Below are positions 5,775 to 46,956 of a stretch of 64,000 bases of DNA, piece by piece. The notes beneath the pieces are model-generated. The model was not told the DNA's origin. It saw only the letters and a list, made by a program, of their open reading frames with translations, and did not search any database. The stretch is from Dictyostelium discoideum (lineage: Eukaryota), in contig CM000155.2 of assembly GCA_000004695.1 (NCBI GenBank), forward strand, positions 2,880,001 to 2,944,000. The letters run 5' to 3'. Every line of letters begins with the position of its first letter. Within the stretch, counting starts at the first letter, position 1. Made by a program: the position numbers and the translations under genes.

Positions 5775-5889
5775 AAAAAAAAAAAAAAAAAAAGGGTTAT
5801 AAAAAATAAAAAGTTTATATTTTAAATAAAAAGCTTTATTTTATATTTTTTTTAGTTTTCAAAATTATTTATAGATATAGACCCACATC

Positions 5890-5920
<31 letters not shown>

Positions 5921-14200: not shown

Positions 14201-14614
14201 CCATAATCACTGAAAAGAATACAGTTAATACATCACCACCTTGCCATGGTCTATCTGGTACTGGATTCCATTTTCTATCGACAATTAATTTACCACCATA
14301 CCAAAATGATAACGAATAAGTACCAAATAATACTAAAAATACTAAACCAATACCAATACCATTCATTATACCTTTCTTTGTACCAATATCTAATGCTTCC
14401 TTTAAACGTTCAGTATAACGTTTAACTTCAAATGGTTCACCTGAAAATGTTGAAACAGTTCTAATTGATCCAATCTTTTCTTCTGCAACACCACCAGCTT
14501 TTGCATATGCATCTTGACCTTTCTTTGTTAAATCTGCCATCATTTTTGTCATAAATGCTCCTGCTGCTGCAATTAATGGTGTTAATGCAAAAATTACTAA
14601 AGTTAATTGCCAAC
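11271..14614 (-). CDS. ABCB (MDR/P-glycoprotein-type) full transporter, last exon. It covers most of TMD1, NBD1, the linker, TMD2 and NBD2.
   Basis: A 1093-aa ORF. NBD1 carries GDSGGGKSS, LSGGQKQRIAIARA and ILLLDEATSALD. NBD2 carries GNSGGGKSS, LSGGQKQRVAIARA and VLLLDEATSALD. A lysine-rich linker lies between the halves. The acceptor on the minus strand is ttatag at ~14616-14615. The stop codon TAA is at 11271-11273 on the minus strand. Confidence 0.85.
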
Positions 14615-14741
14615 CTATAATATATTATAATAATAATAATAAAAAAAAAAAAAAAAAAAAAAATTATTGTTAATTTAATTGAAAAAAAAAATAAGAAAAG
14701 AAAAGAAATACAAAAAAATAAATAATAATTATAATTTTTAC

Positions 14742-15108
14742 CATTTACAAAACCAACAATAAAACCACAAATAAAAGTTGAAGTATGATGTAAGAAATTA
14801 CCAATTTTCTCACCAATTGCTTCTTGGAATAATAAAGTATCACTACTAATTCTAGTTGAAAGTTCACTAGATTTTGTAACATCATACCAACCAATCTCTT
14901 GTTTAAGAATTGCTTTTAAATAAGCTTTTCTACATCTAACTGCTTGACGTTCACCTGCTAACATCCAAAATGCTACTTCAACATATGAACATACAAAAAC
15001 ACCACAACCAATATAAATAAAATACATTGCATTTGATGTAACTGTTTCAACTAAATCAAAATTTGGATCCGCTAAATTTTCTGGTGAAAATGAATTCATT
15101 AAACGACC
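14742..15108 (-). CDS. ABCB transporter, exon 3
   Basis: This exon reads GRLMNSFSPENLADPNFDLVETVTSNAMYFIYIGCGVFVCSYVEVAFWMLAGERQAVRCRKAYLKAILKQEIGWYD...FVNG. The donor is GTAAAAAT on the minus strand at ~14741. The acceptor is ttttttttatag at ~15110-15109. Confidence 0.75.
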
Positions 15109-24229: not shown

Positions 24230-25145
24230 TTTGTTTTTATATATTATGTATTCTAATTACGGACTCATCAACATACTCTTTTGTCACTAACAGATAAAGT
24301 TTCGTTTGATTATCTTNTGGTGAAAACATCAGCATCAGATTGTAATTGATCAGCTCTTTTATAACCCGTTTTGTTTTTGAGTGATTGAGATGTGATTCCA
24401 CCATTATTGGAAGTTGTGACAGCTTCATGTGTTGATCAAGCATGGGTGGTAGAGAGCTCGATAGCTTTTTCAACTAGGTCATCTGATGATTTTCATTTGG
24501 TTATTTCAATATCCCTGTGCAATTAATTTTTACTTGTCTCCGCCTCTCTAAATTCAACATTTACTTTGTACTTCAAATCATTTTTATCAATAGTAACTTC
24601 GTTAAATAATACACCAAATTCATCACTTTGATTGAATTCAACATCTTTAAATTCCAAAAAAGCGATATCTTCGGGTGGATACTTTTTATTAGATTTATTG
24701 TTTTTACTGTAGATCATTTTTTGGAACGAAAACTTTAAAAAAATAAAAAAATAAAAAAAAAATACTTTTTAATTTTTTTAATTTTTTTTTTTATATTTTT
24801 TTTTTTTATATTTTTTTTTTTTAAATTTTTTTTTTTAATTTTTTTTTATTTTATTTTTTAAAGTTTCGAACAATTATATATAAAAAAAAAAAAAGATATC
24901 CCTTCGGTTAATTATAGTAACAATACAGACAACAAGAATAATTATAAAATAAAAAAAAAAAAAAAAAAATCTTTTTTTATCTTTTTATTTTTATTTCTTA
25001 TTTATTTTTATTTTTTTATTTTTTATTTTTTTTTTAATTATTTTAATCCCGTGAGTTTTTTTTTATTATTATTTTTAATTCTTTTATATTTGAGATGATT
25101 ATTATTAATTAAATGACTTTGAGTTTTTTTTTTTATTTTTCTATG

Positions 25146-25320
25146 CCCAAAATTACCATATTAATTTCGGCAGCCATATTAATTTCAGCCTAAAATAGTT
25201 GGTCTGTGCATGCCAAAATTAATATGGCTGCTGAAATTAATATGGTAATTCTAGCAGACATAAGTCCCATGCCAAAATTATCATATTAATTTCAGCAGCC
25301 ATATTAATTTTGGCATGGGA
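25146..25320. repeat. Foldback repeat cluster: three copies (direct, inverted, direct) of a unit of about 45 bp
   Basis: Copy A (25146-25190) and copy C (25269-25320) are direct copies. Copy B (25211-25255) is their reverse complement. A and B form a hairpin with a loop of about 20 nt (taaaatagttggtctgtgca). The unit itself contains an internal duplication, CCATATTAATTTC x2. Confidence 0.8.
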
Positions 25321-25540
25321 CAAATATGAATTAAAAAGAAAACAAACTTTAGAACTAAAAGAATTAAAAAGTGAATGTGGGGAAGGCCCGGTATTATCTA
25401 AAGAAGAATCAAAAGAATTGGATGATTTAGAAAGAAAATATAAACGTGTTGGAAATTAAAAAATAAAAAAAGGTAAAAAAAAAGTAGATAAAAATAAAGA
25501 TATTAAATTATAATGTGTTTATCCACGCTCGAGGAAGGAT

Positions 25541-27243
25541 TTATAATCCAACTCTTTCTAATCTATCATATTCATTTTGTAATAAACCAATTTCTTTTTT
25601 TATTTCATATTGTCTTTCTTTTGTTGTCACTGGTTTGAAATTAATTATTTCATCAGTATCTGACAACCAATTTTTAGATTTGAATAATTCATATAAATCA
25701 GAATGTGTCATCATTAAACGCAATACACCACCCGAACCATATGGTTCAATTTTAATTCCAAAAGTTTTCAATGTGGTTTTTAATTCAGCTTCTTTAATTG
25801 TATGTTTATTATCTCTGTTCATTTCCTGATGATATTTAAATTCATTTACAAAATCAGTGAATTTAATTTTGTTCAAATCTTTACCTTGTAAAATGTAATT
25901 TTTTTTAATATATTTCATATTTGCCGGTAATTGATCACTTTTCATCCCAATAAATGTTTCAGATTGTGGTATAACATCTTCATTAAATTTAGATTTATCA
26001 CTATTTTTCAATTTCCAATAAAATGATTCAGCTACATTTGGATCGTCCATATATTTACCTAACTTTTCAAAATAATCTTTATTTCCTTTGAATTCAGATG
26101 ATAAATCAAATATAGCAAAACGTCTTTATACTGATGCGCCTATCTTTATATTATCAGAATTACAAGTGAAAATCATATTCATATAATTAGGTACATTTAC
26201 TTTATCATTTTGATTTCTTTTACGAATGGTAATTAATAGTTCAGTAATAATATATTTAATACCCTCACCAACATTATTCCAATCCTTTACAATTGGTTCA
26301 TCAACCACCATTAATAGCTTTTTCTCAATAATATCATTCCATCCACCAAAAAGTCACAATTATTTACTGATGCGGATATATTATAACCTAAAATCTTTGT
26401 AATAAAGAAATTTGTAAAAATACCTTTTCCAATACCACCCATAAATAATCTCCACATTAATGCAGTCCTAAGTTTACGTCCTTGACTACATGCTAACCAA
26501 TTAATTAGATATGAATATTGTTCTTCATTAAGAGAACAAATTGCAACCTTCAAATGGTTCATAATCACATCAACACCCTCCAGTGTCGTGGTGCTGACCC
26601 CGTTTGGTTCGCTATCATAGAACCAACCTGCAAATTCATTAACACATAAACTACAATCATCTCGTTTAAAAATTCTATCTTTATCTGGAACCCAAGTTGG
26701 TGTACAATGATTTGGTTCATACTCCATAAACCATTGGTAAACATCAAAATTTGGATAACCATCAATTTTGATTATTCTTCTTCTAAAATATGTTTTCTCT
26801 GCATCTGAATACGATAAATCTTTTATTTGTTTATCACCTGGCACCCAAAATCTAAATATTGGTGAACCACCTATTTTAATAAAGTATGTTGATATATACT
26901 TTTTTATATTCTCAACTTCGTCAAATGTTTTTGCAGTTACACACATAATATTTAATGTGTTTACATCAAATGCTTGTTTTGACGAACAAAATAAATGTGG
27001 GTATGATTGATTAAATAATGACTTGTTCACTTCTACTGGTTCTTGATTTAGCGGGCAAGTTAACTTGGCTACTAAATCTTCTTGCACTAAATCTTCTTCT
27101 TCTAAATCTTTTTGCTCCACTAAATCGTTTTCCAATTTATCAACAAGCTCTCTCCAACTCTCATCTGAATCTCTTCTATTTTTATCTGTATGTCCAAGTT
27201 CTTTTGCTCTTTCAATAAGTTGTTGTTTATTAGGTTTTACCAT
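25541..27243 (-). pseudogene. Degenerate SF3 (D5/P4-type) helicase-like ORF, split into three pieces by a frameshift and a stop. It is probably derived from a virus, plasmid or mobile element.
   Basis: Three consecutive minus-strand ORFs lie at 26311-27243, 26126-26311 and 25541-26050. They carry a degenerate P-loop (LFMGGIGKGIFTNF), a Walker-B-like LMVVDEP and a motif-C-like MIFTCNSDN, in SF3 helicase order. A Cys/His-containing N-terminal domain precedes them. No intron signals are present. Frame breaks occur at ~26311 and ~26050-26125. Confidence 0.45.
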
Positions 27244-27259
27244 TTTATATAACTATATA

Positions 27260-27703
27260 TTATGTAAAGTTTAAAATAAAAAATAGAGAAAAAAATAGAA
27301 AAAAATATCTTTGTTGGTTTTTTATAACATTAATTTCAAGTCTTTCATAGTGTTTTCTATCAATAAAAACATTTTCAACTTTATATTCTGGTATCTCATC
27401 ATTGAACGCCAATAAAATATAATCATAATTATATAAATTTATTTCACTACCATCTGTCATATTATAAATTGATAGAGATTGATGTTTTTTGATTTTATCT
27501 AAATATATTTTTAATGATACTATAATTCTTACATCTCCGCTAATTATTGTATAATATTGATATGGTCTATTTTGATAATTCATTTTTATATATCGGTATA
27601 TTATGTAAAGTTTAATGTAAATGTGATGTAAAAAGTTGTGTAAAAAATTTTGATTTTTTTTTTCAAAATCTTTTGATTTTTTATTATTTTTATATTTTTT
27701 CAA
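27260..27703 (-). CDS. Small hypothetical ORF inside the mobile-element-like island. The true start is possibly the internal Met MNYQNRPYQYY, which would give a protein of about 105 aa.
   Basis: A 147-aa ORF with no recognised similarity. It lies between the helicase-like pseudogene and a frameshifted + strand ORF. Confidence 0.2.
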   Translation of the reverse strand: MKKYKNNKKSKDFEKKNQNFLHNFLHHIYIKLYIIYRYIKMNYQNRPYQYYTIISGDVRIIVSLKIYLDKIKKHQSLSIYNMTDGSEINLYNYDYILLAFNDEIPEYKVENVFIDRKHYERLEINVIKNQQRYFFLFFSLFFILNFT

Positions 27704-27747
27704 AATTTAAACTACATATACGGTAGTTTTTTTTGATTGTATATAAA

Positions 27748-28213
27748 ATGTCAGAAAAAAGTATAACAGATTTAGTTACAATTGCAAAAGAAACAAAAGT
27801 ATTATCTGTTTGTTCCAGTATCTCTAGCTGCTTTTGTAAACCAAAATATCAAAAAAGAAAGAAAATTAAAAAAATTCGAAAGTAGAGACTTTTTTGCCGA
27901 TATCAAGGATCAATTAGATGGACTGGAGTGCTCCTTATTTAACACCATCAACCTTTTTTTTAGTCCAATTGAAGGTTTTGACCAACTTTCCGACTTATTA
28001 GTAAAAGCCATGTTCAAAGATGAAATTGCTCCATTTGGAAATGCAACCAATGTTATTAAAGCTTTTTGTAAAAGAGTCTCTAACTATGGAGAATTAATTC
28101 ATAATTTTATAAGATGTTATGACAAAGATGATTCATATAATATTTTAGAAAATTATGAAGCTTTAAAAATATCCCTAAACAAACTTTTGTTGTTTGTTGA
28201 AACACAAATTTAA
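27748..28213 (+). pseudogene. Hypothetical ORF with an apparent +1 frameshift near its 5' end
   Basis: ATG at ~27748 gives MSEKSITDLVTIAKETKVLSVCSS, which terminates at ~27885. The 143-aa ORF at 27782-28213 in another frame overlaps it and continues as VPVSLAAFVNQNIKKERKLKKFESRDFFADIKDQLDGLE...; this looks like a single gene broken by an indel. Confidence 0.3.
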
Positions 28214-28299
28214 TAACAATATAAAAATAAAAACAATCACCTCCGCAAATTCGCAGTTTTTTGCGGGTTTTAATTTTATCACAACAACAATAATTATTT

Positions 28300-28590
28300 A
28301 TTTATTTTTTCGCGTGTAGAAAAGTAGAGAGTGTAGAGTGATTTCTGACGAACTAGTACGGATTTCACAAATACACAAAAATAGTGCACGTCATATAAAA
28401 TCAATAGAGAACCCCTATAACTCCTCTTACGTTATGCACGATATTGTGTTTGTGTAATTCTGTGCGCGTGTATTAAAATCAAGAGGGATTGTTAGTACGT
28501 TATCATTATACATGACGTACACAGTTTGCACTTTTTTTTATGTTTTCGTACTTTTTTTTACTACTCACTCTACAACTCTATTTTTCTACA
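28300..28590. repeat. Imperfect palindromic (foldback) element of about 280 bp with atypically GC-rich composition
   Basis: The left end reads GTAGAAAAGTAGAGAGTGTAGAGTGA. The reverse complement of the right end reads GTAGAAAAATAGAGTTGTAGAGTGAGTAG. Internal arms also pair (agtacgGATTTCAC...GTGCACGTCAT versus ATGACGTACAC...cgtact). CG dinucleotides (cgcgtg, gtgcgcgtg) are otherwise very rare in this window. Confidence 0.6.
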
Positions 28591-29837
28591 TATATATAAA
28601 AAATTAAAAATAATATTAATATTACATGAATATATGTATAGAGTAATATATAGATAATAAAAATATGGAATATAGTTTAGAGTGATTTTAGGTTATAGGA
28701 GCATAGCCGAAGGCTAATGCGATAGGGAAGCAGCAAAGCGTTCCCTCACACCTTCCCTCACACCTTACCATTTTATGACCTTCCAGAATATAGTAATTTT
28801 CAAGGTACTATTGATAAAAAAAAAAAAGCTAAATTATTTTAAATTTGTTTTCTTTTCACCAATGATAAATCTAATGATGGATTCACAATCATTTCGATAT
28901 AAAACAAATAAATTATTTATTGTTTTTTTTTGTAAGGTTGTTAAATTATAATTTTTCTTTTTCTTCTTATTATTATGTTTATTATTTAATAAATTATTAA
29001 TACTAATATCTAAAAATGTTATTTATTTATTAATTAATTAATTAAGTACATACTATTGGATGTTTTATACATGCCATAAACCAACCTATCAAGAATATGT
29101 TGAAAGTTTACAATCAATAATTTAAAATTGTTATAATATATATTAATAATTAGGGAAATTGAAGAGAATAAAATTTACATCCTAATCCTCCATTTCCCCA
29201 AAAATTTTCAAAAATAAATAAATAATTTAAAATATTAATACAAATTGTATGTGTATATTAAATAATAATAGATTAAAAAAAAAAAAAAAAAAAAAAAAAT
29301 TAAATTAAATTAAATTAGAATCAAAATTTCCTTCAAACATAATTCATGCTCTTCTATTCCTGTAAAAAAAAAAATTAAAATTAAAAATGTTGGGGTGTGA
29401 AATTTTAAAAATATGTTTGTTTGAAACAAAAAATAAAAAAAAAAATGGTGTAGATCGCCAAATTAAAAGCCAAGATTGTTCAAATATTTCCAATGTATTG
29501 ATGGATGCAACAAAGAATTGGAAAGAAATGCCAGAAAGTTGGAAAAATAAATTAAATTTTTATTAGTAATTTTTTAGTTTTGTTGCAAATTTTAATAATC
29601 AACAAAATAATAATAACTAGTAATAATAAAAAAACATAAAAAAAAAAAATATTTTTTTGAATCCAAACTTTACAACTTTAAAAAAAAAAAACTAAAACTA
29701 AAAAAGGTAGAGTGCACTTGTTAGGTTTGATGCTAATTATTTATTGATTTTTAATATTATTTTTTTTTTTTTTTATTTCTGGCAAACTTAATATGGAATA
29801 TCAGTTACAACCTGTGCAATATGAAAGCACTTGGTCT

Positions 29838-30002
29838 ATACATAGAATAGGAATGTTGTTTTTGTAAAACTCTTCACCTGTATTACCATGCAGGCAAAAA
29901 GTTCCCCTTCACTTAGAAAAGCGTTGAAAAGAATGGCAGCAAAGATTGCACCACCTCTAGTGAAAAGACCTGATAGATTGGTTTGCATATTATAAATTAT
30001 TT
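29838..30002 (-). pseudogene. Fragment copy of the ABCG gene, corresponding to 33020-33120
   Basis: The reverse complement is nearly identical to tataatatgcaaaccaatctatcaggtcttttcactagaggtggtgcaatctttgctgccattcttttcaacgcttttctaagtga. The translation [34 protein letters not shown] then diverges. Confidence 0.8.
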
Positions 30003-30604
30003 TTTTTTTTTTTAAATGCAACAAAATAAACAATCAATCATTTGAACAATTATATTTTTAGAGAAAATGAGTTGGGTCATTTATAGATTAAAAAAAAAAA
30101 AAAATCAAAAAAATTGATTTAATTAAATTGTTTTATTTTTTATTTTTTCATTTTTAAATTTTATAAATTTCTAATATTTGTTTATGTGTTTTATTGTTTT
30201 TTTTTTAAAAAAATTGAAAATAGATAGGTAAAATAAAAAATTAAAATTAAATGGTTATTGCTTTTATTTATTTTATTATTTTAAATCAAATAAAATAAGT
30301 AATTAAATTTTGGTTTTTATTTTTTTTTTTATTTAAAAATTCAAATTTGACAATCAAATCAAATTTTTGGTTTTTTTTTTTAATATCTATTTTTTTATTT
30401 AAAATATATTAACTTTTCTTTTGTTTCTCAAAAAAATTTATTAAAAAAAAATAAAGTAAAATAAAATAAAAATCTGAATTTAAAATAAAGACTTTTTCGA
30501 ATGGGACTATTAAAAAAAAAAAATAAAAAAATAAAACTGTTATTATTTGAAAAAAAAATGGATTTCGTAAAAAATAAAAAGACGATAAAATAGATATTTT
30601 GGAG

Positions 30605-30644
<40 letters not shown>

Positions 30645-31080
30645 AAAAGAATTTAAAAAAAATAAAATTAAAAAAAAAAAATACTATTGAGACTCTTTTA
30701 AAAAGATTATTCAAAAAAATTTTCCAAAATGTGACCGCTAACAATGCATTGATTGCGTTTGGTGGGTAGCAAAACCGTCATGACAGTTACATGAAAATAT
30801 TTAAAAATAAAAAAAAGTGAAAAAAAAATAAAAAAAAGTGAAAAAAAAATAAAAAAAAAAAATAAAAAATAAAAAAAAATAATTTGTTGTTGCAATATTG
30901 AATCTAGATGATGACAACAGTTTACTAATGACAAAACATTCAACATCAACCATCTATTTTTGTTAGGTTATTTTTAAACTAACCACAGTATTATTAATAT
31001 TTTATTTTTTATAATATTTTTTTTTTTTTTTTCCATTTTAAAAGACAATTTTTTTTTTTTTTTATTATTGTTATTATTTT

Positions 31081-31119
<39 letters not shown>

Positions 31120-31254
31120 TATAGCTATAAATAAATAATTTTTTATACAATTTATTTTCTTAATTTATTTATTTATTTTCTAATTTTTTTTTTTTATTTT
31201 TTATTTCTAAAAATATTTTTTTGTTCATAAATAAATATTTTTATTCATTTAGTA

Positions 31255-31566
31255 ATGGATAATAATGTTGAATATGAATTAAAAGAAGTCTCTATTCAAG
31301 AGGGTGGTAGTAATTTAAATATTAATACACCAAGTGGAATGAGTGATGGAGATTTCAATAGCGGCGCAAATTCACCAGATATTGTAAAAAGTGAAAATGA
31401 TTTTGATAAATTGGCAGAAAGTTTAGAAAAAGAATCAAAACAATATTTTGCGGCTCAAGATAATGAAAATAATGCTGGAGAAAGTGAGGAAGATTTTAAA
31501 TTACGTAGATATTTCGAAAATTCTCAACGTATGGCATTAAGTAATGGTTCAAAACCAAAGAAAATG
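31255..31566 (+). CDS. ABCG (PDR-type, full-size) transporter, exon 1
   Basis: ATG at 31255. The exon reads [18 protein letters not shown]...SNGSKPKKM. The donor GTAAAT is at 31567. Confidence 0.75.
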
Positions 31567-31648
31567 GTAAATATTAAAAATTTTTTTTTATTTTTTATTT
31601 TTTTACATCCCAATTAATTTTTTAATTTTATTTTTTAAAATTTCATAG

Positions 31649-31867
31649 AGTATTTGTATTAGAAATTTAACAGTTGTTGGTCGTGGCGCAGATTTATCAG
31701 TTATTGCAGATTTATTAACACCATTCAATTGGTTTATAAGTTTATTTAAACCATCAACTTGGAAAATTGAAAAAACTTCAACATTTAATATTTTAAATAA
31801 TGTCACATGTTTTAATAGAGACGGTCAAATGTTATTAGTTCTTGGTCGTCCAGGTGCTGGTTGTTCT
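31649..31867 (+). CDS. ABCG (PDR-type) transporter, exon 2
   Basis: The acceptor is tttcatag (31647-31648). The exon reads [16 protein letters not shown]...[11 protein letters not shown], ending at donor GTAAGT (31868). It contains the degenerate PDR-type N-terminal Walker A motif GRPGAGCS|TLL. Confidence 0.8.
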
Positions 31868-31934
31868 GTAAGTTTTTCAATTTTTTAATTTTTTTTTTTC
31901 CTAATTCCTTTAATTAATATAATTTTTATTGTAG

Positions 31935-32225
31935 ACATTACTCCGTTTAATTTCAAATCAAAGAGGTTCATACATTAGTGTTGATGGTGATATTAAATAT
32001 GGTGGTATTCCAGCAAAAGAATGGGAGAGATATAAAGGTGAAGCAATTTATACTCCTGAAGAAGATTCTCATCATCCAACATTAACAGTACGTGAAACAT
32101 TAGATTTTGCACTTAAATGTAAAACCATTCATAATCGTTTACCAGATGAAAAAAAAGTTACATTTAGAGAGAAAATTTCAAGTTTATTATTATCAATGTT
32201 TGGTATTGTACATCAAGCTGATACT
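31935..32225 (+). CDS. ABCG (PDR-type) transporter, exon 3
   Basis: The acceptor is ttattgtag (31934). The exon reads [24 protein letters not shown]...IVHQADT, ending at donor GTAAGT (32226). Confidence 0.8.
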
Positions 32226-32269
32226 GTAAGTTAATTTTATTTTATTTTATTTTATTTTATTTTATTAAA

Positions 32270-32298
<29 letters not shown>

Positions 32299-32301
<3 letters not shown>

Positions 32302-35300
32302 GTTGGTAATGAATATATTAGAGGTTTATCAGGTGGTGAAAGAAAACGTTTAACAATTACAGAAGCAATGGTATCATCAGCATCAATTACATGTTGGGAT
32401 TGTTCAACTCGTGGTCTTGATGCAGCATCAGCACTTGACTATGCAAAATCAATTCGTATTATGTCTGATACATTACATAAAACATCTATTGCATCATTTT
32501 ATCAAGCATCCGACTCTATTTATAATTTATTCGATAATGTATTAGTATTGGAAAAAGGTAGATGTATTTATTTTGGTCCAGTTGGTCAAGCCAAACAATA
32601 CTTTTTAGACTTGGGTTTCGATTGTGAGCCACGTAAATCAGTACCAGACTTTTTAACTGGTGTTACCAATCCACAAGAACGTATTATTAGAAAAGGTTTT
32701 GAAGGTCGTGTTCCAGAGACATCTGCAGATTTCGAACAAGCATGGAAAGCATCCGAGTTGTGTAGAGAAATGGAAAGACAACAAACTGAACATGAGAAAA
32801 AGATTGAAGTTGAACAACCACATCTCGATTTCATTGAAGAGGTAAGAGCAAACAAAAGTAAGACAAATACAAAGACATCAGTTTATACTACTAGTTTCCC
32901 AACTCAAGTTAGAGCTTTAATCGTTAGACATAGTCAAATTATTTGGGGTGATAAGTTTTCATTGGTATCTCGTTATCTTTCAGTTATCATTCAATCATTT
33001 GTTTATGGTTCTGTATTTTATAATATGCAAACCAATCTATCAGGTCTTTTCACTAGAGGTGGTGCAATCTTTGCTGCCATTCTTTTCAACGCTTTTCTAA
33101 GTGAGGGAGAGCTTTTTGCTACATTTTATGGTAGAAGGATTTTACAAAAACAACAGTCCTATGCTATGTATAGACCAAGTGCTTTTCATATTGCACAGGT
33201 TGTAACTGATATTCCATTGACTACAGTTCAAGTTTTTTTATTTTCCATTGTTGTTTATTTCATGTTTGGACTTCAATACGAAGCTGGTAAATTCTTTATT
33301 TTCTGTTTCACTTTAATTGGTGCTACCTTGGCTACAACCAATATGTTCCGTGCCTTTGGTAATTTATCACCATCACTTTATGTAAGTCAAAATGTGATGA
33401 CAGGTATATTAATTTTCATGATCAGTTATTGTGGTTATTCAATTCCAAAGAATAAAATGCATCCATGGTTCGGTTGGTTCTTTTGGGCAAATCCTTTCAC
33501 TTATGCTTTTAAAGCATTAATGGCAAACGAATTTATGGATTTAAATTTCTCTTGCGAAACTGAAGCAATTCCATATGGTACTGATCCAACAACTGGTGCT
33601 CCTTATGATAATTCGGTTAGAGTTTGTGCATCTGCTGGTTCACGTCCAAATACATTGGAGGTTAAAGGTTCAGATTATTTAATGGATGCCTTAACATTTA
33701 AAAGTGATGATCGTACATTAAACATTTTCATTACTTATCTTTGGTGGGTACTTTTCATCATTATAAATATGGTCGCAGTTGAATATTTAGAATGGACAAG
33801 CGGTGGTTTTACAACAAAAACTTATAAAAAAGGTAAAGCTCCAAAATTAAATGATGCTGAGGAAGAGAGAAAACAAAATGAAATTGTAGCAAAAGCAACT
33901 AGTGAAATGAAAGATACTCTTAAAATGAGAGGTGGTGTTTTTACATGGGAAAACATTAAATATACTGTTCCAGTTGGTAAAACTCAAAAATTATTATTAG
34001 ATGATGTTGAAGGTTGGATTAAACCAGGTCAAATGACTGCATTAATGGGTTCATCAGGTGCTGGTAAAACAACACTACTCGATGTTTTAGCAAAGAGAAA
34101 AACATTGGGCACTGTTCAAGGTAAAACTTTCCTTAATGGTAAAGCTTTGGAAATTGATTTCGAACGTATCACTGGTTATGTAGAACAAATGGATGTTCAT
34201 AATCCAGGTTTAACGGTTAGAGAAGCATTACGTTTTTCTGCTAAACTTCGTCAAGAACCATCAGTTTCATTAGAAGAGAAATATGATTATGTCGAACATG
34301 TTTTAGAAATGATGGAAATGAAACATTTAGGTGATGCTTTAGTTGGTACTTTAGAAACTGGTGTTGGTATTTCAGTTGAAGAAAGAAAAAGATTAACAAT
34401 TGGTGTTGAATTGGTTGCTAAACCTCATATTCTTTTCCTTGATGAACCAACGTCTGGTTTAGATGCTCAATCTTCTTATAATATTGTTAAATTCATTCGT
34501 AAATTAGCAGATGCTGGTATGCCATTAGTTTGTACAATTCATCAACCTTCCTCTGTATTATTTGAACATTTCGATCGTATTCTTTTATTAGCTAAAGGTG
34601 GTAAAACAGTTTATTTCGGTGATATTGGGGAAAGATCAAAAACTCTTACTTCTTATTTTGAACGTCAAGGTGTACGTCCATGTACTGAATTTGAAAATCC
34701 AGCTGAATATATTTTAGAAGCAACTGGTGCTGGTGTTCATGGTAAAACTGAAATTAATTGGCCAGAAGTTTGGAAACAATCACCAGAACTTCAAGAAGTT
34801 CGTAGAGAATTATCATCTCTTGAAGCTTCTGGTTCATCTTCATCCTCTAATGAAAATGGTGTTCCAAGAGAATTTGCAACAAGTATTTGGTATCAAACAT
34901 GGGAAGTTTACAAGAGAATGAATGTAATCTACTTTAGAGATCCTTTCTATGCCTATGGTAGTATTCTTCAAGCTGTTATGACTGGTATAATTGTAGGTTT
35001 CACTTTTTGGGATTTAAAAGATAGTTCATCCGATATGAATCAACGTATTTTCTTCATTTTCCAAGCTCTCTTACTTGGTATCCTTTTAATTTTTGTAGTT
35101 ATGGTTCAATTTTTAGTACAAAAAGAATACTTTAAAAGAGATTACGCTAGTAAATTCTATTCTTGGTTCCCATTTGCAATCTCAATTGTTTTGGTTGAAA
35201 TTCCATATACCATTGTTTGCGGCTCGGTTTTCTTCTTTTGTTCATTCTGGACTGCTGGTCTTTTCATGGAAGGTCAAAATGGAGCAAACTTTTACTTTTG

Positions 35301-35823
35301 GATTATCTTTATCATTTACTTGTTCTTCTGTGTCTCATTTGGTGGTGCAATTGCTGCAGTTTGTAATCATATGTTTTTGGCAATGACTCTTGTACCATTA
35401 CTAATTGTTTTCCTATTTCTTTTTTGTGGAGTTATGGTTCCCCCAAGCCAAATTCCTACGTTCTGGAAGGGTTGGGTCTATCATTTAAATCCCTGTCGTT
35501 ATTTCATGGAAGGTATCATTACAAATGTTCTCGAACATCAAAAAGTTAATTGCTCATATGAAGATTTAACTAAATTTAATAATCCTACAACTTTAACATG
35601 TGAAGAATATTTTGTACCAGCAACTGGTTATGTTACAAATACTACCTCTGATAACTCTGAATGTGGTTATTGCATTTTCAATAGTGGTGAACAATATTAT
35701 AAAACTCTTGAATGGGATGCTTCAAATAAAGGTCGAAGTATTGCAATTCTAATTGCTTTTTGGATGTTCAATATTTTCTTAGTCGTTTCATTTGTTTATT
35801 TAACAAGAAAACCAAGTAGATAA
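32299..35823 (+). CDS. ABCG (PDR-type) transporter, exon 4. It covers the rest of NBD1, TMD1, NBD2 and TMD2.
   Basis: The acceptor is tttttaag (32298). The exon carries [11 protein letters not shown], a second Walker [43 protein letters not shown] and two 6-TM domains, in NBD-TMD-NBD-TMD order typical of PDR-type transporters. TAA stop at 35821-35823. Confidence 0.9.
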
Positions 35824-35875
35824 ATTATCTCAATAGTCCTTATAGTAATATAAAAAAAAAAATAAAAAAAAATAA

Positions 35876-35930
<55 letters not shown>

Positions 35931-35944
35931 TAATAATAAAAAAA

Positions 35945-36270
35945 AAAAAAAATATATTCAAATAAAATAAACTTTATCTTTTTTTTTTTATTTCTTTTAA
36001 AAAAAAAGTATTTTTTAAAATTTAATTGACTAAGAGTTTATAATCCAATTTTTATTAAATATTAAAATATATAAATTTAGGGTTTATCATTTTTTTTTTT
36101 CAAACCACATTAGTCACAAAATATTCAAATAAAAAAAACTTTGTCTTTTTTTTTATTTCTTTTAAAAAAAAGTATTTTTTAAAATTTAAATTGACTAAGA
36201 GTTATAATCTAATTTTTATTAAATATTAAAATATTTAAATTTAGGGTTTATCATTTTTTTTTTTTAAAAA
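35945..36270 (+). repeat. Tandem duplication (2 copies of about 165 bp) of the ABCG 3'-flank sequence
   Basis: The unit ttcaaataaaataaactttatctttttttttatttcttttaaaaaaaagtattttttaaaatttaattgactaagagtt(t)ataatc(c/t)aatttttattaaatattaaaatat(a)taaatttagggtttatcatttttttttt occurs at ~35945-36105 and ~36110-36270. Confidence 0.8.
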
Positions 36271-36377
36271 ATATTAATTTTAAACAAAAGAGAGGAAGAA
36301 AAGAAAAAACAATAATTATTAATGTTGTTTGTGATATTATTAAAAATTTAATCATTATTACTATTATTGTCAAAAAT

Positions 36378-36840
36378 TTGCTGATAAATCATCAAAGTAA
36401 GAATCTTTCAGTTATCATTCAATCATTAGTTTATGTTTCTATATTTTATAATATGCAAACCAATCCATCAGGTCTTTTCACTAGAGGTGGTGCAATCTTT
36501 GCTGCCATTCTTTTCAACGCTTTTCTAAGTGAAGGGAACTTTTTGCTTGTCTGCGTAGAATTTCACAAAAACAATATTCCTATTCTATGTATAGACCAAG
36601 TGCTTTTCATATTTCACAGTTTCCAACTGATATTCCATTGACTACAGTTCAAGTTTTTTATTTTCCATTGTTGTTTATTTCATGTTTGGACTTCAATAAG
36701 AAGCTGGTAAATTCTTTACTTTCTGTTTCACTTTAATTGGTGCTACCTTGGCTACAACCAATATGTTCCGTGCCTTTGGTAATTTATCACCTATCATTGT
36801 TGTTTATTTCATGTTTGGCTTTCAATACCAAACCGGTTAA
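36378..36840 (+). pseudogene. Degenerate fragment copy of the ABCG gene, corresponding to ~32960-33400
   Basis: The fragment reads ...tcagttatcattcaatcatt(a/t)gtttatg(g)ttct(g/a)tattttataatatgcaaaccaatc(c/t)atcaggtcttttcactagaggtggtgcaatctttgctgcc... It then has indels and stops, and later re-matches ttctgtttcactttaattggtgctaccttggctacaaccaatatgttccgtgcctttggtaatttatcacc. Confidence 0.8.
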
Positions 36841-37974
36841 TTCTTTATTTTCTGTTTTACCAAATCCACCATTTTATTAAAAGTTTACTAGAAATAAAAA
36901 ATAATAATAATAATAATAATATTAAAAATAAATAAATAATAAACAATCAAACATAACAAGAGAACTCTACCTTTAATTTTTTTTTTTTTTTTTTAAATTT
37001 GGTTTGAATAATAATATTTTTTTTTATATTTTTTATTATTATTATTTTGTTAATTATTAAAATTTTCAAAAAATTACTAATAAATCATCAAAATAAGATT
37101 CTAAAAAATCTGGTAAAATTTGCTTATTCACAAAGCAAATTCTTTTTTTTGCTTTATTTTTCATTTTTCATTTCTTTTTTCAAACTATTTTAGTAACAAT
37201 AAAGAATAAGCAAATAATTAATTTATTAAATTTAAAAAAAAGCAATGGCCATAACGAAAACAATACCACAATTATCAAAGAGTGATTTTAGCATCTGGTT
37301 TGTTTAAATTAAATTTTCAATATCATCACCATCATCACAACCAACAATACAGCTGTTCTTAGGTGTTTTAGATACTACATAAACAATATTACTCCCAAAT
37401 CACTATCAATTATAAACAAAATAAAACAATCTGAATAATCAAAATAATTCTTTGGGTGAAGAAGATATAGGTCAACCAAAATTATTTTCATCAACACTTC
37501 AATCTTCAAAACCCGTATCACCAAAAATAAATGTAAACGCCACATTATCATCACCAACTACGAGCTCATCAATACCAAGACCACTAACAAAATCAACAAC
37601 CACTACATCACCTTTAACAACAACAACAGCCACTACAGGTAATCTTTTCAGTTCAATTCAACCAATGGCACAATCAATCATCCACACCTATACGTGATAA
37701 ACCTTATGTACTTGGGCTAATGTTTAGGCTAAACTAACAATCACTTCAACAATCAAACATTCAATTTAACAATCTTCTTCTTTGCCAAATTTCACCTGTA
37801 CCACCAAATTTCTCAGCACAACCATTTTACATGTTCATAAGATCTCTTTATCAATGCATCATGATGACTATATATTATTGTAACTGTAAGTTTTAAAAAT
37901 CATACTAACACAAATATTTCAACAAAAATAATTTGAAATCTAATAAAGATATAGATTTTTATTCTTTCTTTTAT

Positions 37975-38125
37975 TTTTAAATCTTCATATGAGCATATAA
38001 CTTCTTGATGTTCGAGAACATTTGTAATGATACCTTCCATGAAATAACGACAAGGATTTAAATGATATACTCATCCTTTCCAGAAGGTAGGAATTTGGCT
38101 TGGCCGGGTCATAACGATGGCGCTA
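37975..38125 (-). pseudogene. Inverted fragment copy of the ABCG 3' coding region, corresponding to ~35430-35570
   Basis: The reverse complement reads ...gccaagccaaattcctaccttctggaaaggatgagtatatcatttaaatccttgtcgttatttcatggaaggtatcattacaaatgttctcgaacatcaagaagtt... This matches the [36 protein letters not shown] coding segment. Confidence 0.75.
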
Positions 38126-38384
38126 ATAAATTATCAAAAAAAAAAAAAACCAATCAATTCTATTGAATCCATAACCCATCTCTAATTTTGCAACTGATTC
38201 AGGTTTGTGAAGTTGGGTAATTTGTTGCTGTGGTTGTTGCTGTAGTAATTGTTGTTGTTGTCGATATAATTCATAGTAAAGGTGCAGTAGGTAAATTATC
38301 TTAATAATTAGAGTAGTCTTTATAATAATTAGTTTATAAAAAAAAAAAAAATTAAAAAAAAAATAATAATAATAATAAAAATAA

Positions 38385-38490
38385 AAATATATTCAAATAA
38401 AATAAACTATATCTTTTTTTTTTTTTATTTCTTTTAAAGTATTTTTTTAAATTTAATTGACTAAGAATTATAATTCAATTTTTATTTATA
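38385..38490 (+). repeat. Third, partial copy of the ~165-bp ABCG 3'-flank repeat
   Basis: The copy reads atattcaaataaaataaactatatcttttttttttttatttcttttaaagtatttttttaaatttaattgactaagaattataattcaatttttatt. Confidence 0.7.
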
Positions 38491-39080
38491 TTATTATTAT
38501 TATTATTATTTTTTCAAAATTTAAAAATAAATTTGGTTTGAATAAAATAGTAAATATTTTGCGAAGGTTGCTTTTTTTTTTTTTTTTTTTTATTTATTTT
38601 TTGCTATTAAAAATATATTGCCGTGGTTAGAAAAAAAAAAAAAAAAAAAATCGTTTCGGTATTTAAAGTATTTAAAGGCGAGGGGTTGCCTGATCTTAAT
38701 TTTATCCTTTTGGTCAAAAAAAAAAAAAAAAAAAAAAAAAAATAAAATTCGTTGGGAAAAATAAAAAAAAAAAAGTAGATTCCCACCCCGACACATCAAA
38801 TCTTTGCATCATTTAAAAAAAAATTTTTTTTTAAAACGCTTCCAAACCCAACACAAAAAAAAAATATCTAAATTTAATTTATTTTTATTTTATTTATTTT
38901 TTTTTTTTTTTTTCGTTTTTACCTCAAAATAAGTTTTTTTTTTTTTTTGTTTTAAATTTACCAGCCTTCATTTCACTTTTAAATAAATTTATTCTTTTTT
39001 TTTTAATAAATTTTTTTTTTAAAATATAATTTTTTTTTTTAATACTATATATATATATATACAAATAGAAAAAAAAAAAA

Positions 39081-39945
39081 ATGAAATTAATTTTAATATT
39101 TATTTTATCAATAATTATAAATTGTTGTTTTTCAATAATTCCAACATCAATTAGATTAGCATTTACAAAGAATCAAGATGAAGTTAGAGTTACATGGTGG
39201 ACAGATGAAGCAATGGAATCACCAATCGTATTATTTAATAATGAAATGTTTGTACCAAATCAAGATTCAGTCAATGGAATTGAAGCAACCGTTATGAGTT
39301 ATGATACATTAGGATTTCATGGTCATCCAACTACTGCAATTTTAACAGGATTACAAGAAATGACTCAATACTTTTATTCAATTGGTAATAAACATAGTGA
39401 TGAATATTCAGAAGTTTTTAATTTTACAACAGGAAAAATCAATCAAATCGGTGGTCAAGTTACACCATTCTCTCTTTCAATTTTTGGTGATATGGGATAT
39501 GGTGGAAAAGGATTAGATTCAGATTTCTATACAGTTGCAAATTTATATGAACGTTCAAATGATTTAGCATTCAATATTCATGTTGGTGATATTGCATACG
39601 CTGATGAAACTTGGGAGACTGCAATCAATGGTAATCAAACTATTTGGAATCAATTTTTAGATTCAATTAATCCAGTATCCTCTCATTTAATCTATATGAC
39701 ATGTCCAGGTAATCACGATATTTTCTATGACCTTTCAGTTTATCGTCGTACTTGGTTAATGCCAACTGATGATAATGATCAAGTATCTTGGTATTCATTT
39801 GATTATAATGGTGTTCATTTCGTTGGTATCTCTTCTGAACATGACTTTTTACCACTCTCTCCACAACATACTTGGATTGAAAATGATTTAAAAAATTTTA
39901 GATCAAATAATCCTGATAATTTTATTATTATGTTTGCTCATAGAC
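39081..39945 (+). CDS. Purple acid phosphatase-like metallophosphoesterase, exon 1
   Basis: The signal peptide is MKLILIFILSIIINCCFS. Metallophosphatase motifs GDMGYG, GDIAYAD and GNHD are present. The donor is c|GTAAGT (39946). Confidence 0.8.
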
Positions 39946-40002
39946 GTAAGTAAAATTTATTAATTATTTTTATTATTTATTTTAATATTATTTTTAATTT
40001 AC

Positions 40003-40033
<31 letters not shown>

Positions 40034-40042
40034 TTTTTTTAG

Positions 40043-40453
40043 CATTTTATTGTTCAACAGTTTGGAATTGGTGTAATACTACTGAAGATTATTTAAAGAA
40101 AGCATTTGTTTATTCACTTGAAAATTTACTTTATAAATATAATGTTGATATGTTTATTTCTGGTCATACACATTCAAGTGAAAGAACTTTACCAACTTAT
40201 AATGGTCAACCAATTGGTACCTATTCAAATCCAAAAGCTACGATTCATATCACTGTTGGTACTGGTGGTAACTCTGAAGGTAATCAACATCATTGGTATC
40301 CACAACCAATTTGGTCAAGTGGTTATAGAATTTCTGATAATGGTTTTGGTTTAATGAATTTTATAAATTCTACAACTTTATCTTGGCAATTTGTTGCAAA
40401 TATTAATAATACAATTATTGATGAAATTTTCATTACCAAAGGTCAATTTTAAA
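40043..40453 (+). CDS. Purple acid phosphatase-like metallophosphoesterase, exon 2
   Basis: The acceptor is tttttttag (40041-40042). The exon reads PFYCSTVWNWC...MFISGHTHSSER (the GHxH motif) ...ITKGQF, followed by TAA. Confidence 0.8.
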
Positions 40454-40776
40454 AAAATAAATAAATAAATATAAAAATAAATAAATTTTCATAATTAAAA
40501 AAAAAAATAATAATAATAAATAAATAAATAAATAAACAAACAAACAAATAAAATAATAGAATAAATAAATAAATTATTATATATATATATATATTTTTTT
40601 GTAATTATTTAAATATAAAAAAAAAAAAAAAAAAAAAAATCTATTTTTAAAAATGATAAATCATTTTCACTCAAAATATTTTTTATTTTTATTTTTTTTT
40701 TTTCGTTTTTTGGAAAAATCATTTTTTTTTATTTTTATTTTATTTTTATTTTTTTTTTTTTTTTATTTTTTTTTTA

Positions 40777-40807
<31 letters not shown>

Positions 40808-40899
40808 AAAAATTCAAAAAAAAAAAACGAACGACACTATTTTTGAGAGTATTGTTTTCTGGTATTAATATATAAATATTAATTAAAATTAGAGTAATA

Positions 40900-41274
40900 A
40901 TGCCAGTTTCAAAAAAACAAAAGGTAGATACAACAGTTACTGTAACAACTAAAAAACAAGTTGAAAGTACTGAAAAACCACATAAACAATCAAAAGAATC
41001 TAAAGAATTAAAAGCTACAACAACCCCAACTACAACCACACCAACAACAACAACTACTAAAAAACAAACAACAACCAAAGAATCAGTATCAAAACAACCA
41101 ATTATTAAATCACCAAATAGTTCAAAGGTTCATCATTGTTCATTCTCAAGTTGGTTACCAAAACCAATTACATCTATTAGTTATAATCAAGAAAATAATT
41201 TAATTGCAGTATCACGTCAAGAATCACCACTTGAAATTTGGATTAAAAATGATCAAGAATTAATTTTACTTAAA
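40900..41274 (+). CDS. UTP4/cirhin-like WD40-repeat protein, exon 1
   Basis: The exon reads MPVSKKQKVDTT..., then a Thr/Pro linker, then HHCSFSSWLPKPITSISYNQENNLIAVSRQESPLEIWIKNDQELILLK. This resembles the UTP4 N-terminus (RVRFF.YVP.GI.C.A.N....LAVSR.DG.IEIWN). The donor GTAATT is at 41275. Confidence 0.55.
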
Positions 41275-41370
41275 GTAATTATTATATTTAAAAAATAAAA
41301 AAAAAAAAAAAAAAAAAAAAAACAATAATAATAATAAACAAGTATTAATTTAAATTATTATTAAATTTAG

Positions 41371-41798
41371 ACATTAGGAGGATCAAAATTTGATTTACCA
41401 ATTATTTCAGTAATATGGTTAAATAAAACAATATTATTATCAACATTTGAAAATAAATTTGTAATTTGGGATATTTCAAGTTATTCAATTATACAAGAAT
41501 TAAATTCAATTGGTACTGTAAGAGGTGTATCATTTAATAGATTATTAAATTTATTAGCAGTTTGTACACATGATTCAAATGTACGTTTATATAATTTCAA
41601 AAAAGATGATAATGAAATTGAATATCAATCTTCATTCCCATCAGTTTCAGATTCAAAAATTAATACTATTCAATGGGCATTAGATCAAAAAACTATCTTG
41701 GTTGGTTGTCAAAATCAATTGGTTGTTTTTAAAGTTGATTCTTTACGTTCATCTTTAACTATTACAACTGATAATATAGTTTCATTAAATTCATTAAA
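41371..41798 (+). CDS. UTP4/cirhin-like WD40-repeat protein, exon 2
   Basis: The acceptor is aaatttag (41369-41370). The exon contains WD-like blades, reading ...LAVCTHDSNVRLYNF...QWALDQKTILVGCQNQLVVFKV... The donor is aa|GTAAAT (41799). Confidence 0.55.
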
Positions 41799-41805
41799 GT
41801 AAATA

Positions 41806-41865
<60 letters not shown>

Positions 41866-41920
41866 CAAAAAAATTAATTAAAATTTATTAATATATTTTT
41901 TTATTTTTATTTTTCTAAAG

Positions 41921-42500
41921 TGATAATACAGTTGCTTGTGGTTTTACAAATGGTTTTATTTCAATTATTGATATTAAATTTGGTAGTATTATTCAAGATT
42001 TTAGAAATCTTCATGCTCCAGTTAGATCAATTCAAGTTAATAAAAAAGGTGATCAATTCTTTGCATCTGGTGATGAAGCAACCATTGTATCATATAATAA
42101 ATCAAGTGGAAATAATAAATGGGCATTCAGTGGTCAACATAAAAGAGATAGTCATGATATTAAATGTTTAGAAATTACAAATACTCATTTAATCTCTGGT
42201 GGTAATAGTACTCAAATGATCTTTTATGATTTATCTAATTTCTCAAGTTTATCAAATTCAAATGGTTCAATTCCAAATTATTTTAGATGTAAATCATTAC
42301 CATTACCAAATACAATTGCAATTACACAACCATCATCATCATCACAAAATCAAATTCTTTTAATTGAATTTTCAAGATATCAAATTAATATTTGGCAATT
42401 AGGTTCAACTAATGATAATAATGATAATTTAGATTTACCAAATGGTACCCATTTAAATTTATCAAAAAAAACTAAAAAATTATTACAATTTGAATCAAAG
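41921..42500 (+). CDS. UTP4/cirhin-like WD40-repeat protein, exon 3
   Basis: The acceptor is ttttctaaag (41919-41920). The exon reads (N)DNTVACGFTNGFISIIDIKFGSIIQDF...FASGDEATIVSYN...LISGGNSTQMIFYDL...QFESK. The donor GTAAAT is at 42501. Confidence 0.55.
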
Positions 42501-42523
42501 GTAAATAATTTAAATTCTATATA

Positions 42524-42582
<59 letters not shown>

Positions 42583-42717
42583 GATTTAAAATATAATTAT
42601 CTAAAAAAAAAGAAGGAAAAAATCATTTCGATATTTTATTTGTTTTTTTACCTTTTTATAAAAAAAAAAAAATTGGAAAAAAAAAGAAAAAAAAAAAAAG
42701 AAAAAAAAAAGAAAAAA

Positions 42718-43559
42718 TTAATTGACACAATCATTTAAATCTTGATTATTTCGGTTTGCGCTATTGTATGCTTGATAAAAACGTTCTTGGTCTTCATCAG
42801 AGTCTTCGTCGTTGTCATGGTTATAAACATGATTTTTGTTTTTACTATTTTTGATAACATTATCAACATTATAATTTACATTTGTATTTGTATTTGATAT
42901 TGTTGTTGTTGTTGTTGTATTGGTGGCGGAGGCAGTGGTGGTGGTTGTTGTGTGGTTACTACCATTAATAAAATAATTCGTTTGAGCTGGTGAAACTCTT
43001 GCGTTTGGAGGTCTTTTTCTTGGAGGTTGAGTTGGTTGTTGTTGTTGCTGGTGCTGTTGTTGCTGTTGTAGTTGTTGTTGTTGTTGTTGTAGTTGTTGTT
43101 GCATGATTTGATACTTATAGCTATATAATGATTTATATTTTTTGGTTTGTTTATACCAAAAGAAATATTCAATAACATCTTGACATGATTTACCTTTAAT
43201 TAAAGTTGAAATCTTTTTGAAATCTTTTTTATAAATTTTAAAACCTTCATCAAATAAATCTTTTTGAAGTTGTGACCAAGTTTGATTGATATGATCTTCT
43301 AAACATGGTTGGATGGTATCGAGTGAAGAGAAATCAATAGATTCCAAAGCATCTGCAACAGAGTAATCGTATTCATCTAAAATCGCCAAAATTGAAGAGT
43401 CTGGTATTTTGGAAACATTTTTATTTGTTTGGACACCCATCGATCTCAATGAATCATCAATACTTTTCAATTTCTTTCTTGCCGCACTAATAAAATGATC
43501 AACTTCTTCACTTTTTAATTTATATGGTGTATAAATTAATGTAGGTGGTAAATGATCCT
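42718..43559 (-). CDS. ELM2-SANT domain protein (MIER/CoREST-like), last exon, encoding the SANT domain and a poly-Gln-rich C-terminus
   Basis: The acceptor on the minus strand is ctaaaattttag (43561-43560). The exon reads (E)DHLPPTLIYTPYKLKSEEVDHFISAARKK...WSQLQKDLFDEGFKIYKKDFKKISTLIKGKSCQDVIEYFFWYKQTKKYK (the SANT/Myb-like domain), then Q-rich tracts and ...NQDLNDCVN, followed by TAA. Confidence 0.55.
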
Positions 43560-43652
43560 CTAAAATTTTAGAAAAAAAAAAAAAAAAAAAAAAAATAATT
43601 AAATTAATAATATATTTATAAAATATAAAATAAAATAAAATAAAATACTTAC

Positions 43653-46361
<2,709 letters not shown>

Positions 46362-46596
46362 CTATTAATTTCAAAATAATAAAAAACAATAAATAAAAAA
46401 AATTAAAAATTAAAAAATAATAATAATAATAAAAAATAAAAAAAAAATAAAAAAAAGAATTAGTCAATTGTTTAGAATTATTTTTTTATTTTAAATATTT
46501 TTTATTTTTTTATTTTATTTTTTTTTTATTTTTTATTTTTAATTAAACATTATTTTTTTTTTTTTTTAAAAAAATAATAAAAAAAAAAAAAAAAAA

Positions 46597-46650
<54 letters not shown>

Positions 46651-46668
46651 TAATTATAATAATAATAA

Positions 46669-46768
46669 NNNNNNNNNNNNNNNNNNNNNNNNNNNNNNNN
46701 NNNNNNNNNNNNNNNNNNNNNNNNNNNNNNNNNNNNNNNNNNNNNNNNNNNNNNNNNNNNNNNNNNNN
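46669..46768. other. Assembly gap of 100 N. It is flanked by (AAT)n on the left and by a (AT)n microsatellite of about 160 bp on the right (~46790-46950).
   Basis: A run of 100 n characters. Perfect (AT)n follows at 46790-46950. Confidence 0.99.
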
Positions 46769-46777
46769 AAATATACA

Positions 46778-46956
<179 letters not shown>

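Follow-up and report, generated by a model that had tools for sequence, protein, structure and literature searches.

Chromosome 6 of Dictyostelium discoideum AX4 carries an intact gene for a PDR-type ABCG full transporter, abcG9, with broken pieces of the same gene lying on both sides of it. This locus raises the question of where the pieces came from, how old they are, and whether they serve any purpose. We analyzed a 64-kb window of the AX4 chromosome (the whole stretch of DNA under study, G+C 23.7%, to which all coordinates refer unless another genome is named) and compared it with the abcG9 loci of related strains and species. The pieces are, with good probability, decayed and non-functional relics of old DNA-level duplications of abcG9. 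We regard the locus as a hotspot of pseudogene relics and structural variation that is ordinary in kind. No paper on Dictyostelium abcG9 or its nearby fragments was found in the literature.

The spliced translation of abcG9 was an exact match to AX4 AbcG9 (P0121, UniProt Q8T683, 1448 amino acids). Copies of the gene were detected by comparing the window with itself by BLAST, by searches for inverted and direct repeats, and by Tandem Repeats Finder (TRF). The E-values of three coding fragments, named A, B, and C, and of the flank copies ranged from 1e-46 to 1e-165 in this self-comparison. All five elements that a first-pass annotation had listed from the sequence were recovered, with small corrections of coordinates (Table 1). 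The inverted exon-4 piece placed at 29838-30002 is fragment A, which proved to be longer. The direct piece with indels and stops at 36378-36840 is fragment B followed by G', a second partial copy directly 3' of B. The inverted piece of the 3' coding end at 37975-38125 is fragment C, and the 3'-flank tandem at 35945-36270 is the pair Z/Z', whose third copy, placed at 38385-38490, corresponds to 38322-38493. The motif noted before two of the units is CTRATAAATYATCAAA, at 36381 and 37077. A third copy at 38123 was added, and all three are on the + strand, with 0.15 occurrences expected by chance.

Table 1. Features of the abcG9 locus in AX4; "gene" refers to positions of abcG9 in the window.
Feature	Position	Strand	Details
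U, upstream gene	AX4 29149-29566; L003 5007-6318; L004 5142-5721; L005 17300-17992; L006 7569-8686		
X', inverted copy of spacer X beside A	29569-29789	-	74.8% to 37085-36881
Fragment A, disabled exon-4 copy, inverted	29793-30000	-	gene 33014-33217, 90.9% over 209 nt, E 1e-75
abcG9, intact PDR-type ABCG full transporter	31255-35823	+	four exons
abcG9 exons	31255-31566, 31649-31867, 31935-32225, 32299-35823	+	spliced translation
Z/Z', tandem duplication of abcG9 3' flank	35954-36268	.	TRF period 164, 1.9 copies, 93% matches
Partial extra X end with motif copy m1 (36368-36404)	36320-36404	+	motif match 36381
Fragment B, disabled exon-4 copy, direct	36403-36796	+	gene 32975-33375, 92.8%, E 1e-165
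G', second partial copy directly 3' of B	36795-36860	+	gene 33246-33311, 89%
Spacer X ending in motif copy m2 (37063-37100)	36861-37100	+	motif match 37077
AX4/AX2-only segment, broken open reading frames	37101-37976	+	C-rich on + strand, GC skew -0.45 to -0.51
Fragment C, disabled 3' coding end, inverted	37977-38115	-	gene 35431-35569, 90-93%, E 6e-48
Motif copy m3 and module Y	38113-38290	+	motif match 38123
Z'', older third 3'-flank copy	38286-38493	+	38322-38493 84.4% to 35892-36064

Fragment A lies 1.25 kb upstream of the abcG9 ATG. Its source in the gene is the region of the first transmembrane domain, and it contains a core of 106 nucleotides (nt) that is 96% complementary to the gene. 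In fragment B, the last (3') 138 nt are 99% identical to AX4 abcG9. Fragment C spans amino acids ~1319-1364, with 139 nt that are 90% complementary to the gene; tblastn gave 89% amino acid identity with an internal stop. All three copies are dead, disabled by frameshifts, stops, and truncation. Indels were found in A, four indels (1, 4, 3, and 1 nt) and a TAC>TAA stop in B, and a TGG>TGA change in C, and none of the three covers more than ~170 codons. A and B form an inverted repeat with the whole of abcG9 between them; its best arm measures 104 nt at 95% identity, with 6.4 kb between the arms.

The parentage of the pieces was examined against the closest paralogues. In a protein search, the nearest genes of the same species by amino acid identity were AbcG21 (77%), AbcG13 (75%), and AbcG10 (70%), and further D. 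discoideum paralogues had at most 70% identity to AbcG9. The comparison at the DNA level covered abcG13 and abcG21, an adjacent tandem pair (L009). The pieces were ~91-93% identical to abcG9 by BLAST and 86-91% over wider MAFFT spans, versus 63-77% to abcG13/abcG21. By MAFFT, the exon-4 pieces were 91% identical to abcG9 and 66-76% to the two paralogues, and the 3'-end piece 86% and 63-68%. These values point to the adjacent abcG9, and not to a paralogue, as the parent of the fragments, in agreement with the first-pass annotation.

That annotation had also considered that the copies might collapse in long-read data. An independent gap-free assembly (L007), collinear with the window over 24230-42559, matched 29500-38600 with 0 mismatches and two differences in poly-A length. 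The copies are thus no assembly artefact. The abcG9 protein of L007 is identical to AX4 AbcG9. From this identity and from the assembly set, in which wild strains and AX2-214 were assembled de novo from Nanopore plus Illumina data (PMC12745789), we infer that L007 is the AX2-214 assembly.

We next turn to the age of the pieces, for which abcG9 loci with 10-kb flanks were compared from D. citrinum (L001), D. firmibasis (L002), D. dimigraforme (L008), two wild D. discoideum strains (L003 and L004), and two strains designated 'cf. discoideum' (L005 and L006). Both A and B carry a spacer that is not derived from the gene, X' and X, respectively. Because the flank of A is an inverted copy of the spacer behind B, A and B are two copies of one composite unit, both truncated. 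L004, L005, and L006 each have two or three extra exon-4 copies (AX4 gene 32929-33436, amino acids 485-651), which vary in position and orientation among these strains, and the internal junctions of the unit are common to all three. The copies start at gene position 32929, or at 32949-32951 in two L006 copies. The full-length ones (L004 up1, L005 a, and L006 a) then run into a re-repeat of gene 33216-33312 and further into X. A trailing repeat of the G' type is present behind exon-4 copies in L004, L005, and L006 as well, and behind the full-length copies of L004 and L006, X leads directly into the motif and module Y. X matched L004 4426-4126, L005 6719-6580, and L006 2647-2406; Y matched L004 4149-4087, L005 18111-18261, and L006 2423-2281. 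The position of fragment A corresponds to copy up2 of L004, which adjoins a promoter block common to both. Most fragments of the four genomes, moreover, have an insertion of 4-5 nt and a G>T change, both absent from all eight genes. Because the internal junctions of the unit are common to three other strains of the discoideum complex, the duplication events appear to be old and inherited rather than specific to AX4.

Relationships of the genomes were obtained from the phosphatase/WD40 region and from abcG9, as ((((L003,L004),AX4),L005),L006),D. citrinum. The ancestral gene order, found in D. citrinum, D. firmibasis, and D. dimigraforme, is a half-size ABCB gene, a gene for a 275-amino-acid protein with a GH18 domain, and abcG9. 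A purple acid phosphatase gene, which in AX4 begins at 39081 and is the next gene downstream, is also next in D. citrinum and D. firmibasis; D. dimigraforme differs downstream of abcG9. The spacer between abcG9 and the phosphatase gene measures 3.26 kb in AX4 versus 1.5 kb in D. citrinum and 0.8 kb in D. firmibasis. No abcG9 fragments were found outside the gene in the D. firmibasis and D. dimigraforme loci. The sole trace in D. citrinum is an inverted remnant of 76 nt in this spacer (L001 15176-15251; 79% to its own abcG9 at 12415-12489, E 2e-11), which hints that the first duplication may predate the split of D. discoideum and D. citrinum. The D. purpureum comparison proposed in the first-pass annotation was also made; the closest homologue there is non-syntenic, with no fragments around it. 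L003, the sister of L004, has no fragments at all, so copies can also be lost. Copies were sought within the fetched flanks, and all those seen lie within ~8 kb of the gene.

The longest relics in the other strains inform on the nature of the progenitor. L004 up1, L005 b, and L006 a extend in the 5' direction with collinear pieces that match AX4 gene ~32727-32820 and 32281-32387 at ~77-81% identity. The L006 relic (3150-3420) keeps the intron-3 acceptor, a polypyrimidine (poly-T) tract with AAG, beside the start of exon 4. Because this acceptor is retained, the progenitor was a copy of genomic DNA and not a retrocopy. The AX4 fragments themselves have no intron sequence, and AX4 has copies of the 3' flank. 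A processed (retroposed) pseudogene was considered and rejected: no poly(A) tail was found at the ends of any fragment, and the related relic retains intron sequence.

The affinity of the fragments to the resident gene was counted in mismatches by alignment block. Outside a core of 65 columns, the nearest gene was strictly the resident one for seven of nine fragments, with ties for the other two. For example, L004 up2 had 4 mismatches in 420 to its own gene versus 13-20 to the others, and fragment A of AX4 had 3 in 143 versus 6-10. The core patch was 13-28% diverged, and the adjoining 5' relic pieces were ~20% diverged (~77% identical). Copy L005 a is without the fragment-specific insertion, and in the core it agrees with the gene of its own genome, as a conversion tract would. 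No sign of conversion from fragment to gene was seen in the core patch. The similarity to the resident gene looks mostly like the product of gene conversion, not of youth. A single origin followed by gene conversion would best explain the common junctions together with the affinity to the own genome.

These data bear on the reading given in the first-pass annotation, that parts of abcG9 were duplicated repeatedly. Local duplication and rearrangement stood up to the comparison; repeated, independent sampling of the gene in AX4 did not, given the shared composite unit. Recent, repeated, and independent partial duplications in the AX4 lineage would account for the AX4 fragments being nearer to AX4 abcG9 than to the genes of other strains in the blocks flanking the core, for the nearly identical 138-nt tract of B, and for what is specific to AX4/AX2, namely the Z/Z' tandem, the two extra motif copies, and the segment 37101-38122 with C. 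Such duplications would not, however, provide A and B with the same non-gene spacer, nor three other strains with a unit of the same internal junctions. By MAFFT, fragment A was also closer to copies in L004, at 94-95% identity, than to AX4 abcG9, at 91%. Overall divergence between the AX4 fragments and the AX4 gene was 7-9%, rising to 18-25% within the core patch. We consider a recent origin improbable.

The pieces between and beside the coding fragments were examined in the same way. In other strains, X runs through the motif into Y without a break, and the whole is single-copy. Because of this, the motif is the plain ancestral X/Y junction, and only the AX4/AX2 lineage has it in triplicate. 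The interval 36320-36404 resembles the end of X when compared by eye with 37040-37100, which indicates that it may be the stub of a preceding tandem unit, i.e. that the unit was duplicated in tandem. The 3' flank of abcG9 is single-copy in L003-L006, and Z and Z' in AX4 are 91.4% identical by blastn. Z'' continues with weaker similarity from 38286 (75%, from 35815) and is contiguous with the upstream region of the phosphatase gene; synteny with other strains picks up again at 38467. The segment 37101-37976 was without a match in any other compared locus, and no protein homologue was found for its conceptual translation of 192 amino acids. Rfam returned for it only a sub-threshold snoZ107_R87 hit (24.2 bits vs a gathering score of 50, E 0.19).

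With its motif copies, the AX4 unit could be taken for an exon-4 piece captured by, or carried in, a non-autonomous mobile element, with the copies placed by transposition. The unit is bracketed by direct repeats of the ~37-nt motif, as is the 1-kb segment 37093-38122, and among strains both the orientation of the unit and its place with respect to abcG9 vary. The brackets are, however, better read as tandem duplication, the motif being the ancestral X/Y junction and single-copy in other strains. No terminal inverted repeats were found, no transposase or reverse-transcriptase was recognised by eye among open reading frames (ORFs) of at least 80 amino acids in the strain-specific flanks, and the absence of a poly(A) tail and the confinement of the copies seen to the vicinity of the parent gene also speak against transposition. 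An origin of this kind is distinctly improbable.

Rearrangements of the locus are seen where abcG9-derived repeats lie. In L005, a block of promoter and abcG9 is opposite in orientation to both the GH18 and the phosphatase genes, and in all other genomes compared it has the ancestral orientation. Adjoining the phosphatase gene of L005 is a relic of the abcG9 3' end and flank in ancestral orientation (gene 35427-35889, 82-86%), which forms an inverted repeat of 0.5 kb with the 3' end of the live gene (5429-5946 vs 14224-14800, 82%). Exon-4 copies lie on both sides of the block. The breakpoints are near abcG9-derived repeats, with kilobases of strain-specific DNA between them. Exchange between inverted repeats derived from abcG9 would give the L005 arrangement. 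Fragment C is inverted in AX4 and the corresponding L005 relic is direct.

Another rearrangement lies upstream of the gene in AX4/AX2. Similarity to the other genomes stops there at A/X' (~29570-30000), and the stretch ~24230-29566 is non-syntenic with the ancestral neighbours in L001, L002, L004, L006, and L008. X' is joined to the stop codon of the degenerate upstream gene U (end 29566) at a TTATTAG microhomology. The ancestral neighbour DDB_G0293428, with the GH18 domain, is outside the window on the same AX4 contig as abcG9. Because of this location, the rearrangement is intrachromosomal, with its end exactly at fragment A/X'. A published translocation between chromosomes 3 and 6 (PMC12745789) was considered as the cause of the upstream break and rejected, as DDB_G0293428 is still on the abcG9 contig. 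The AX4 order X', A, promoter may be the product of a deletion between direct upstream copies like up1 and up2 of L004.

U itself is a member of a small family of cysteine-rich (zinc-finger-like) genes and accompanies the fragments in every strain of the discoideum complex. It seems degenerate in AX4, where the last exon alone is readable.

It was also considered whether the inverted self-copies are kept for a function, either tuning of abcG9 through antisense or double-stranded RNA or a switch that flips the cassette. Inverted exon-4 copies upstream of the promoter have been retained in four lineages, the inverted copies are more gene-like than neighbouring relic sequence, and one strain has the cassette flipped. 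On the other hand, L003 has lost all copies, three related species have an intact abcG9 without them, and copy number, position, and length vary freely among strains; gene conversion accounts for the similarity without selection. Retention for a function is thus very unlikely. We likewise strongly doubt that the repeats are a working device, in which promoter and abcG9 would flip together as a switch, or antisense or double-stranded RNA would act against the region of the first transmembrane domain, and in which conversion would preserve their match to the gene. Finally, although abcG genes do form tandem pairs such as abcG13 and abcG21 and N gaps interrupt the AX4 reference in other parts of the window, it is scarcely credible that the fragments are relics of another abcG paralogue from an old tandem array, or assembly artefacts, given the low identity to abcG13/abcG21 and the exact agreement of L007.

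The preferred history, of old relics of abcG9 itself, would run as follows. A duplicate of abcG9 may have arisen no later than the common ancestor of the D. discoideum species complex. It would have extended at a minimum from the last part of intron 3 through exon 4, and the 3' end and flank were probably included. Deletion would have shrunk it to the composite unit of ~500 nt of exon 4 (G500), G', X, the motif, and Y. This unit would then have been re-copied and inverted within the locus, so that copies came to lie on both sides of the live gene, with which they would have exchanged sequence by gene conversion. Since the copies lie in inverse orientation to one another and to the gene, they could provide the material for renewed deletion, duplication, and inversion. 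AX4 would represent one truncated version, to which its lineage would have added the tandem duplication of the 3' flank, the triplication of the X/Y motif, and an insertion of 0.9 kb with the inverted 3'-end piece. What we infer from comparing the loci is that the origin was single, that gene conversion took place, and that the rearrangements came about by repeat-mediated recombination.

Several points weigh against this history. Affinity to the own genome could also arise by independent duplications in each lineage, which is disfavoured because the junctions are common to the strains. Strain-private gene substitutions offered few informative sites for a test, and its support for recent conversion from gene to fragment was weak. 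The insertion of 4-5 nt common to the copies sits in a patch that is hard to align, which weakens it as a marker of common origin. The inversion in L005 comes from one assembly, in which the breakpoints were located only approximately. Copies of the unit at unlinked sites are possible, as the comparison was confined to abcG9 loci. X, Y, and the segment 37101-37976 are without an identified source, and the order of events cannot be uniquely reconstructed.

Other features of the window were recorded alongside. An ABCA-type gene lies at 969-5774 (+), and a full-size ABCB-type gene at 11271-15099 (-), the halves of which are 72% identical to each other (11277-12003 vs 13332-14057). The L007 annotation has a gene for 615 amino acids at 25540-27582 (-) with a weak DUF5906 match; a Pfam scan of two ORFs there (25544-26050 and 26314-27243) gave nothing significant. 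A stretch of 4.3 kb at 42560-46820 contains an N gap (46669-46768) and a low-complexity ORF of 1249 amino acids (42718-46467, -), which by eye has an apparent SANT/Myb-like region close to its C-terminus. This stretch is absent from the near-identical, gap-free L007 and from the alignable downstream flanks of L001-L006, and is either an insertion specific to the reference or a piece misplaced at the assembly gap.

Features of this kind, which combine unprocessed pseudogene fragments with concerted evolution and repeat-mediated structural variation, are already well known. In the human RCCX module, the pseudogene CYP21A1P stands beside its parent gene CYP21A2 and exchanges sequence with it. The abcG9 fragments resemble this pair in being local DNA-level duplicates with disabling lesions that evolve in concert with the functional copy. 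They differ in that only pieces of 140-500 nt are present, in both orientations and variable number, and in that conversion from fragment to live gene was sought in the core patch and not seen. In the human F8 gene, extragenic inverted copies of an intragenic segment, the int22h repeats, mediate inversions. Likewise, at abcG9, sequence from within the gene lies inverted outside it (A relative to exon 4, and C relative to the 3' end), and recombination between such copies inverts the interval. The arms at abcG9 are much shorter (100-500 nt, 88-96%), and since A and B flank the whole gene, exchange between them would flip an intact cassette and not break the gene. In L005, where the only inversion was found, abcG9 is left intact.

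Within Dictyostelium, the tgrBC locus has been described as a hypermutable hotspot of 104-250 kb (PMC12745789). It was studied in the same species complex and the same assemblies, and it has in common with the abcG9 locus localised and repeated recombination, duplication, and inversion within the locus between strains. The abcG9 locus is, in contrast, ~10 kb long, with one conserved single-copy functional gene and no new functional paralogues, and is without a known link to a polymorphic recognition function.

For work on AX4 and AX2, the warning of the first-pass annotation about read mapping is borne out, as sequence nearly identical to exon 4 and to the 3' end of abcG9 recurs within 6 kb. 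Such decoys, present in both orientations, may produce false variants, false antisense signal, or spurious structural calls in AX4/AX2 data. The expectation that the locus would give insight into how the abcG family expands was not borne out: every copy is dead and none is a new gene in the genomes examined, and the locus alone does not show how functional abcG genes multiply. Together with tgrBC, it offers a compact and well-bounded case, in a gene-dense genome, in which dead pieces of a gene would persist, be re-copied, and be homogenised with the live gene. Such persisting pieces may in turn give rise to new deletions and inversions among strains that are closely related.

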